DNA of 37,954 nucleotides, from the UHGV virus genome UHGV-0114795; one strand, given 5' to 3'. The notes below the pieces were generated by a model, which worked only from the letters and a program-made list of their open reading frames with translations, was not told the DNA's origin and searched no databases. This DNA comes from a virus. This document shows positions 31,282 through 31,639 of the stretch, piece by piece. Position 1 is the stretch's first letter, and every line of letters starts with the position of its first letter. A program made the position numbers and the translations under genes.

Positions 31282-31520
31282 TTGGTGAGAATCGAAGCAA
31301 CTTGTCGTGCCAATCGAGCCATATCGTCGTCAACGACGCCCCATTCAAGAACAGCAAGCAGCATTGAGAACTTTGGAATCCAATCCCTCTTCCACCTGCT
31401 GATCTGCGACTTATCAACTCCCACAGCTTCCGCTGTCTTCTCAGTTCCAAGCATTGCGATTTTGTTAAGCAACGCACTCTCGATTCGTAGAGCCTCGTTG
31501 CGTTTGTTTGCACGAACCAT
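31227..31520 (-). CDS. cII: CII transcriptional activator (lambda type)
   Basis: 97 aa MVRANKRNEALRIESALLNKIAMLGTEKTAEAVGVDKSQISRWKRDWIPKFSMLLAVLEWGVVDDDMARLARQVA.., recalled as lambda CII with 1-2 substitutions. Confidence 0.9.
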   Translation of the reverse strand: MVRANKRNEALRIESALLNKIAMLGTEKTAEAVGVDKSQISRWKRDWIPKFSMLLAVLEWGVVDDDMARLARQVASILTNKKRPAATERSDQIQMEF

Positions 31521-31530
31521 ATGTAAGTAT
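31498..31530 (+). promoter_or_regulatory. PRE promoter with CII-binding TTGC-N6-TTGC site
   Basis: TTGCGTTTGTTTGC at 31498..31511 followed 13 nt later by AAGTAT at 31525..31530, on the strand antisense to cII/cro and directed toward cI. Confidence 0.7.
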
Positions 31531-31597
31531 TTCCTTAGATAACAATTGATTGAATGTATGCAAATAAATGCATACACCATAGGTGTGGTTTAATTTG

Positions 31598-31632
31598 ATG
31601 CCCTTTTTCAGGGCTGGGATGTGTAAGAGCGG
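31598..31632 (-). promoter_or_regulatory. nutR (boxA + boxB) N-utilisation site
   Basis: On minus strand CGCTCTTACACA (boxA) then GCCCTGAAAAAGGGC (boxB hairpin), immediately downstream of cro stop; matches lambda nutR. Confidence 0.8.
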
Positions 31633-31639
31633 GAATGTC

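Follow-up and report, generated by a model that had tools for sequence, protein, structure and literature searches.

The immunity region of the viral genome UHGV-0114795, analysed here within the whole stretch of 37,954 nucleotides (hereafter, the window), raises the question of how a nutR-cII segment close to that of phage lambda came to adjoin a cro gene, operators and a repressor DNA-binding domain that are not those of lambda. Comparisons with lambda, with other phages and with viral contigs argue strongly for a lambdoid mosaic, in which an immunity cassette of the VT2-Sakai type would very probably have been set in an early regulatory frame of the lambda/434 type.

Genome setting and lambda-like blocks

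Over its last 25 kb (13000-37954), the window is closest to the Escherichia coli phages Louie, Dewey, HZ41 and IME10 (95.5-96.6% identity over 49-60% of this stretch). Louie and Dewey have about 60% of it in common with the window at 95.5-96%, and P22 itself shows 84% identity over 49%, as judged by nucleotide similarity alone. On this same basis alone, the genes common to the window and these relatives include P22-like portal, terminase, coat and tailspike genes. A 2.1-kb composite running from cII to N (2,145 bp, 31231-33375) is matched end to end at 99.2% by vB_EcoP-720R6, the record of which is filed under Lederbergvirus. Taken as a whole, these similarities point to a P22-like (Lederbergvirus-type) coliphage that carries a lambda-style early regulatory region.

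The window is written in the orientation opposite to that of the conventional lambda map. The minus strand encodes cII (31227-31520; lambda-type allele, Pfam Phage_CII, E=5e-48) and cro (31640-31855; 71 aa, HTH_3 type according to Pfam) and the plus strand encodes cI (31973-32626; Pfam HTH_3 and Peptidase_S24, E=8.7e-29) and N (33119-33445; Pfam N36, E=1.5e-26). A 90-aa ORF on the minus strand (30932-31204), for which no Pfam match was found, lies between cII and the replication initiator gene; it takes the place of the short cII-O spacer of lambda and is also present in several IMG/VR contigs that carry the same cII. The O-like replication initiator gene (29982-30929, minus strand) includes tandem 12-bp repeats resembling TCATGTGCGGCT at 30360-30510 (about 2.7 and 3.8 copies), which encode a His/Ala-rich repeat. 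By analogy with lambda O, they are probably origin iterons embedded in the initiator gene.

The region was compared with lambda (NC_001416) by blastn, by ungapped base-by-base alignment and by an identity profile in 30-bp bins. Five blocks were delimited: 31231-31633, which includes cII, the leader and nutR (lambda 38649-38247; 97.3% identity, ungapped, with 11 mismatches over 403 bp), 32216-32620, which corresponds to the C-terminal part of cI (lambda 37637-37233; 93.3% over 405 bp), 32649-32684, which corresponds to the end of rexB and its terminator (lambda 35834-35799; 88.9%), 32786-32880, which includes the pL leader and nutL (lambda 35583-35489; 96.8%), and 33072-33420, which corresponds to N (lambda 35408-35062; 92.9%). 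More blocks are found beyond N, and blastn against NC_001416 aligned nothing between the blocks. At each border, the identity per bin passes directly from 97-100% to unalignable. An earlier, sequence-only reading of this DNA had predicted two such breaks, near the cro stop and inside cI, as opposed to a uniform moderate divergence, which was not seen.

The first of these blocks begins at 31231, at the cII stop, where lambda homology ends. Its cII shows 95.9% nucleotide identity to that of lambda; ten of the 12 differences are synonymous and two amino acids are changed (A76S and E91D). The cro-cII leader (31521-31633, minus strand), which includes rutA/boxA, boxB, rutB/tR1 and the cII ribosome-binding region, differs from that of lambda by one of its 113 bases, and an exact run of 198 bp extends from 31420 to 31617. 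The nutR boxA (CGCTCTTA, 31624-31631, minus strand), the nutR boxB (GCCCTGAAAAAGGGC, 31600-31614, minus strand), the tR1/leader region, the cII ribosome-binding region and the TTGC-N6-TTGC motif located inside cII codons 3-7 (31498-31511, plus strand) are base-identical to those of lambda. From established lambda knowledge, we take this motif to be the CII-binding -35 region of PRE. The reading of nutR, the cro-cII spacer and PRE as identical to lambda was therefore right for boxA, boxB, the leader and PRE, a single change at 31618 (T>C, in the spacer between boxA and boxB of nutR) being the exception. Over 31498-31639, 137 of the 142 bases are those of lambda, the other mismatches being at 31634, 31635, 31637 and 31639; four of the six bases that precede the cro stop (31634-31639; stop at 31640-31642) thus differ, and beyond 31634, into cro, matches to lambda are at chance level only. 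The homology break is at 31633/31634, next to the position (about 31640, near the cro stop) at which it had been expected.

Within the same block, a terminator scan identified a hairpin followed by a T-run (31251-31285, plus strand; lambda 38599-38630), antisense to the 3' end of cII, which corresponds to the oop RNA terminator of lambda. An Rfam scan of 31000-33600 (E<=1) gave no match, so that nutR, oop and the N leader have no curated RNA family here.

Composition and joints of the immunity cassette

The stretch between the two inner breaks (31634-32215, 582 bp) carries cro, the divergent promoter/operator region and the cI DNA-binding domain. It shows 98-99.8% identity to five isolated coliphages and about 94% to VT2-Sakai, the Stx1-converting phage of Morioka V526, Nil2, phage 2851 and many Stx2 phages. 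The latter relatives (VT2-Sakai, also named Sp5, the Stx1-converting phage, Nil2 and phage 2851) resemble the window in cro, OR1-3, PRM/pR and the entire cI; the alignment with VT2-Sakai extends from the cro stop (31640) to the cI stop (32626) at 92.7% identity and ends at both of these points. Beyond them, unlike the window, VT2-Sakai carries its own nutR, cII and N (H-19B type) and extra genes past cI. Since VT2-Sakai is only about 93% identical, it is a relative of the donor of the cassette and not the donor itself.

The cro gene of the window is about 94% identical in nucleotides to that of VT2-Sakai. Comparison of its product with lambda Cro revealed no detectable similarity, and comparison with 434 Cro gave a weak HTH match (39% identity over 33 aa). 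Three predicted 17-bp OR operators (about 31883-31899, 31916-31932 and 31942-31958), with the half-site ARWACA...YGT, are unlike those of lambda and overlap a pR-like promoter (-35 at 31911-31906, -10 at 31887-31882). Three predicted OL operators of the same type, likewise not of lambda (32705-32721, 32738-32754 and 32763-32779, plus strand), overlap a pL-like promoter (TTGACT at 32752-32757 and TACTAT at 32775-32780, plus strand). For each of the six operators annotated in VT2-Sakai, the window has one at a matching position (within 31883-31958 or 32705-32779); the OL region (32705-32780) is 79.6% identical to that of VT2-Sakai. The pattern ARWACA-N3-YGT has eight matches in the whole window against 2.5 expected, and seven of the eight fall in the OR and OL clusters; as the pattern was built from the sites themselves, this clustering is the sole informative part of the count. 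The cassette thus appears to comprise one operator type that matches the repressor DNA-binding domain and cro. As the sequence-only reading had it, cro, the operators and the cI DNA-binding domain are not those of lambda. Because Cro is unrelated, the N-terminal domain of cI unalignable and the operators different, the phage should be heteroimmune to lambda.

On the cro side, the flank of the 434 type matches the window 18 bp further than lambda does, through the cro stop and the last three cro codons, and the C at 31618 is common to the window and 434-type contigs and absent from lambda. The nearest flank to the nutR/cII patch therefore seems to be 434-like, rather than lambda itself. In a multi-way alignment, the identity of VT2-Sakai to the window still covers the cro TAA and stops there, the sequences beyond being unrelated; for the 434-type contigs, no relation to the window is seen ahead of AAAGCCGCTTAA, and identity begins with it. 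This 12-bp sequence (31640-31651, minus strand), which encodes Lys-Ala-Ala-stop, is the only one common to VT2-Sakai-type cro and to 434-type cro with nutR. As the Sakai-like and 434-like identities overlap in these 12 bp only, the exchange between a Sakai-type cro and the nutR leader maps to 31640-31651. The AAAGCCGCTTAA stretch could nevertheless be conserved for a functional reason instead of serving as a crossover site.

The second inner break (32215/32216) lies inside cI, between its N- and C-terminal domains as the sequence-only reading had proposed. It falls in the hinge, at residue 82 of the window protein (residue 102 of lambda cI), just before the Ala-Gly cleavage site. To the left of 32216, cI is unalignable with that of lambda; from TATGAGTACCCTG onward, everything aligns. 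Residues 1-81, which form the N-terminal HTH domain and the beginning of the hinge (31973-32215, plus strand), are about 95% identical to VT2-Sakai cI. The rest of the hinge and the C-terminal Peptidase_S24 domain (32216-32626, plus strand) show 92.7% nucleotide identity to the part of lambda cI that encodes residues 102-237, with 26 of the 30 differences synonymous and three amino-acid changes. The Ala-Gly cleavage site and the catalytic Ser/Lys motifs are kept, VQAGMF, GNSM and FKKL aligning with lambda cI. VT2-Sakai cI has exactly the same chimeric layout, with the same break relative to lambda. For this reason, the joint was rejected as a recent event in the window genome; being common to VT2-Sakai cI, it is old and is a property of the whole repressor allele family. 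Among IMG/VR contigs, the lambda-like C-terminal domain is joined to two types of N-terminal domain, that of lambda and that of the window, and the repressor of the 434 type and two other repressors have different C-terminal domains. The C-terminal domain of cI sets dimerisation and RecA-stimulated cleavage and not operator specificity; it can therefore be common to several immunity types.

Downstream of cI, both rexA and rexB are absent and an intrinsic terminator is found about 30 bp past the cI stop (region 32627-32684), an arrangement that gives the impression of a precise excision of the rex genes, or of their never having been inserted. This terminator (32649-32684, plus strand; stem at 32657-32678 followed by a T-run) aligns with the rexB end and terminator of lambda.

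Lambda homology resumes at 32785/32786, which is the start of the pL transcript, and continues through nutL (32786-32880, plus strand; boxA GGCTCTTA at 32820-32827 and boxB at 32836-32850). At this transcript start (window 32786), four immunity types converge on CATCAGCAGGACGCAC. The identity of nutL to that of lambda, which had been assumed from the letters, does not hold throughout: three of the 95 positions are mismatched and one of these mismatches makes the first base of boxA a G instead of a C (GGCTCTTA versus CGCTCTTA in lambda), boxB being identical. Elements boxA and boxB are present downstream of both pL and pR. In IMG/VR contigs, the first base of the nutL boxA varies (CGCTCTTA, GGCTCTTA or TGCTCTTA) regardless of the immunity type, the window having G; the nutR boxA is CGCTCTTA in most contigs, with a few A variants.

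Between nutL and N, 191 bp that are not lambda-like (32881-33071, plus strand) stand in place of about 80 bp of the lambda N leader. This alternative segment is found at 99.5% identity in HK544, HK633, HK446, mEp213, mEp043, Sf6, Sf101 and 720R6, and is unannotated in those phages. In the predicted fold (MFE z = -4.4), a long stem is formed by the pairing of GGCTTTGGGGTGTGGTG with CACCACACCACCAAAGCT, the lambda-like sequences on either side of the segment. We take this stem to be that of the RNase III-processed hairpin of the lambda N leader, in which case only the apical part would have been swapped.

N itself was also read as identical to that of lambda, which proved too strong: it is 92.9% identical overall and its 3' end is divergent. 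Codons 1-86 have five differences in 258 nt (98% identity) and one amino-acid change (K65E), and the last 22 codons are only about 70% identical. Residues 1-64, and with them the arginine-rich boxB-binding motif, are identical to those of lambda N. The unrelated, H-19B-type N of VT2-Sakai is followed, right after its stop, by a 98.5% copy (VT2-Sakai 5509-5575) of window 33393-33459, which is the 3' end of the lambda-type N with the sequence downstream; this copy looks like a fossil of the replacement of an N module. In total, besides the joints on the cro side and inside cI, the region has joints at the cII stop (31231), at the terminator past cI (32649-32684), at the pL start (32786), in the N leader (32881-33071) and at the 3' end of N (about 33376).

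Assortment of modules around the nutR leader

A survey was carried out on 120 IMG/VR viral contigs that carry an exact 61-bp stretch of the nutR leader, the adjoining gene being translated. At least five cro types are found on the identical nutR leader and all are joined to it at the stop codon: 434 Cro (about 43 contigs), window-type Cro (about 37), lambda Cro (about 29), a 76-aa protein MEELRLY...LMAA (four contigs) and a fifth type, MNNIANERKK...PPEHKAA (one contig). The cro gene of the fifth type displays a shoulder of similarity, its last nine codons being identical and 50-70% identity extending further in.

On the other side of the leader, about one third of the identical-leader contigs carry a second cII allele (MQLTSTRKKANAI..., encoding the 92-aa protein MQLTSTRKKANAITSNILNRIAVRG...), which begins exactly past the cII ATG (window 31517; +99 from boxB). 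Every pairing of the four main cro types with the two cII alleles was found, the contigs with lambda-type cII and with the other cII numbering respectively 29 and 16 for 434 cro, 20 and 10 for lambda cro, 30 and 7 for window cro, and two and two for the MEEL cro; in the one contig of the fifth type, cII is the lambda-type allele. The second allele differs in the 5' coding region, where the lambda-type cII carries the TTGC repeats of PRE, which suggests that the CII site may co-vary with the allele. The survey puts numbers on how three adjacent modules reassort around a conserved leader of about 120 bp. The same nutR/cII and nutL/N flanks adjoin other, unrelated cassettes, which supports the proposal, already made in the sequence-only reading, of an immunity cassette exchanged within a conserved N/CII framework.

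The complete composite is itself widespread. Counted as present at >=80% coverage, it was found in 64 of 5,426 complete E. coli genomes, most of them at about 99% identity, and 1,711 of these genomes hold parts of it. Besides vB_EcoP-720R6, it is carried at 98-99% identity by vB_EcoP-683R2, Louie, Dewey, phi458 and related E. coli prophages. These five phages are like the window in cII, nutR, cro, cI, nutL and N but differ from it in the replication and ninR modules that flank them; for example, the match with 720R6 stops at 31231 and 33375. PMC12945033 makes no mention of phages Louie or Dewey.

The layout of the window is also that of phage 434 and of the classical lambda imm434 hybrids, in which a foreign cI/cro/operator cassette lies between the pL start with nutL and the cro stop with nutR, N, the nut sites and cII all being lambda-type. 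As seen in contigs, 434 cro has the same joint to the identical nutR leader, and its last 12 bp are common to the cro of the window. However, 434 has a different immunity type and its cI does not have the lambda-like C-terminal domain; moreover, the window genome is P22-like and not lambda-like. The boundaries of lambda imm434, pRE, oop and the RNase III site of the N leader are taken here from established lambda knowledge and from the present contig comparisons. A paper on lambda gt10, which carries imm434 (PMC2966988), does not give coordinates for the imm434 boundaries.

A similar pattern was described within P22-like phages. Salmonella phages P22 and L have a conserved N-terminal part of the antiterminator, an identical boxB and a divergent immC (repressor, cro and c1), and at least 25 sections in which the two genomes are similar alternate with unrelated patches (PMC8022706). 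The pattern is the same as in the window, but the sequence families differ (P22 gene 24 and c2 versus lambda N and cI). More generally, lambdoid mosaics are made of patches of >90% identity with abrupt borders, for which illegitimate recombination, homologous recombination in short conserved flanks and Red-promoted recombination between diverged sequences were proposed (Martinsohn et al., PMC2327257). The region analysed here is very probably a case of ordinary lambdoid mosaicism, a textbook module swap of a kind already known and common in sequenced genomes.

Probable origin of the region

The following model can be drawn for the origin of the region, and none of the observations speaks against a mosaic. 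The frame would consist of N with matching nutL and nutR boxB sites and of CII with the PRE site inside cII. The inserted cassette, of the VT2-Sakai (Stx phage) type, would consist of cro, pR/OR/PRM and the part of cI that encodes the DNA-binding domain, to which is added a distinct OL/pL patch with operators of the same type. The patches would have been brought together when lambdoid phages or prophages resident in the same cell recombined, and selection would then have retained the functional combinations. Under such selection, joints fall where each specificity pair stays together, and the surviving ones would keep repressor and Cro with their operators, N with boxB, and CII with the site inside cII. 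As the boxB-binding N-terminus of N and both boxB hairpins are those of lambda, antitermination specificity would be internally matched. Similarly, as the CII site is inside the first codons of cII, a joint at the ATG cannot separate CII from its site. By analogy, these regulators presumably work as in lambda. The divergence from lambda is unequal between patches (0.9% in the leader, 4% in cII and 7% in the C-terminal domain of cI, mostly synonymous), which argues against a single donor or a single event and for several exchanges of different ages. We infer that the recombination itself proceeded either by homologous exchange in short conserved flanks or by illegitimate joining and later selection. 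Both the 12 bp in common and the shoulder of the fifth cro type are consistent with short-flank homologous or Red-promoted recombination.

Two explanations that do without any natural exchange deserve hardly any credence. According to one, the whole region descended vertically, the leader and the C-terminal domain of cI being held by purifying selection while cro, the operators and the N-terminal domain of cI diverged fast towards a new immunity. The leader is indeed densely functional on both strands (nutR, tR1, PRE and the cII ribosome-binding region), and the mostly synonymous differences in cII and in the C-terminal domain of cI show purifying selection. However, this explanation is at odds with synonymous sites that are 93-97% conserved beside sequence at chance level, with a switch within a few bases, and with a Cro without detectable similarity to that of lambda. 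It is contradicted by the sharp three-way breakpoints and by the assortment on the leader, where cro genes of five unrelated types and cII of two alleles are found and each main cro type (four in all) is paired with both alleles; vertical descent cannot give such a pattern. According to the other, the architecture is artefactual and reflects laboratory hybridisation, as in lambda imm434, or the erroneous assembly of reads of two different prophages over shared repeats. The architecture is exactly that of the classical laboratory immunity hybrids, and a conserved leader of 120 bp could mislead an assembler, but the prevalence of the composite rules out both: all 2,145 bp are found at 99% in complete E. 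coli chromosomes from independent sources (the 64 genomes at >=80% coverage), and the composite is found again in five phages of independent isolation and about 37 IMG/VR contigs.

Recent recombination with phage lambda itself, which would have donated the nutR/cII patch, is scarcely more probable. The exact 198-bp run and the 97.3% identity over 403 bp are what such a donor would leave, but the flank of the 434 type matches 18 bp further and has the C at 31618. In addition, cII of the window has ten differences from both lambda and the 434-type contigs, versus one to five positions in the other contigs. Lambda was thus rejected as the direct donor, the patch being a widely circulating allele and not lambda's own copy.

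Within the mosaic reading, the AAAGCCGCTTAA end, common to cro genes that are otherwise unrelated, and the conserved first bases of the pL transcript might be maintained recombination linkers that channel the exchange of cassettes, and not just joints tolerated by selection. This proposal seems rather unlikely to us, although not as remote as the explanations above. Susskind and Botstein reportedly proposed such linkers in modular phage evolution. One may also speculate that the Ala-Ala found recurrently at the C-terminus of these Cro proteins is itself functional, perhaps as a signal recognised by a protease; were this so, its conservation would be explained independently of recombination.

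The region provides a clean, base-resolved example of the reshuffling of immunity specificity with matched protein-site pairs kept, and leaves the accepted picture unchanged. The window phage is probably homoimmune, or nearly so, with Stx phages of the VT2-Sakai type. Such homoimmunity could bear on superinfection and on the induction of Stx prophages in E. coli that carry P22-like prophages of this type.
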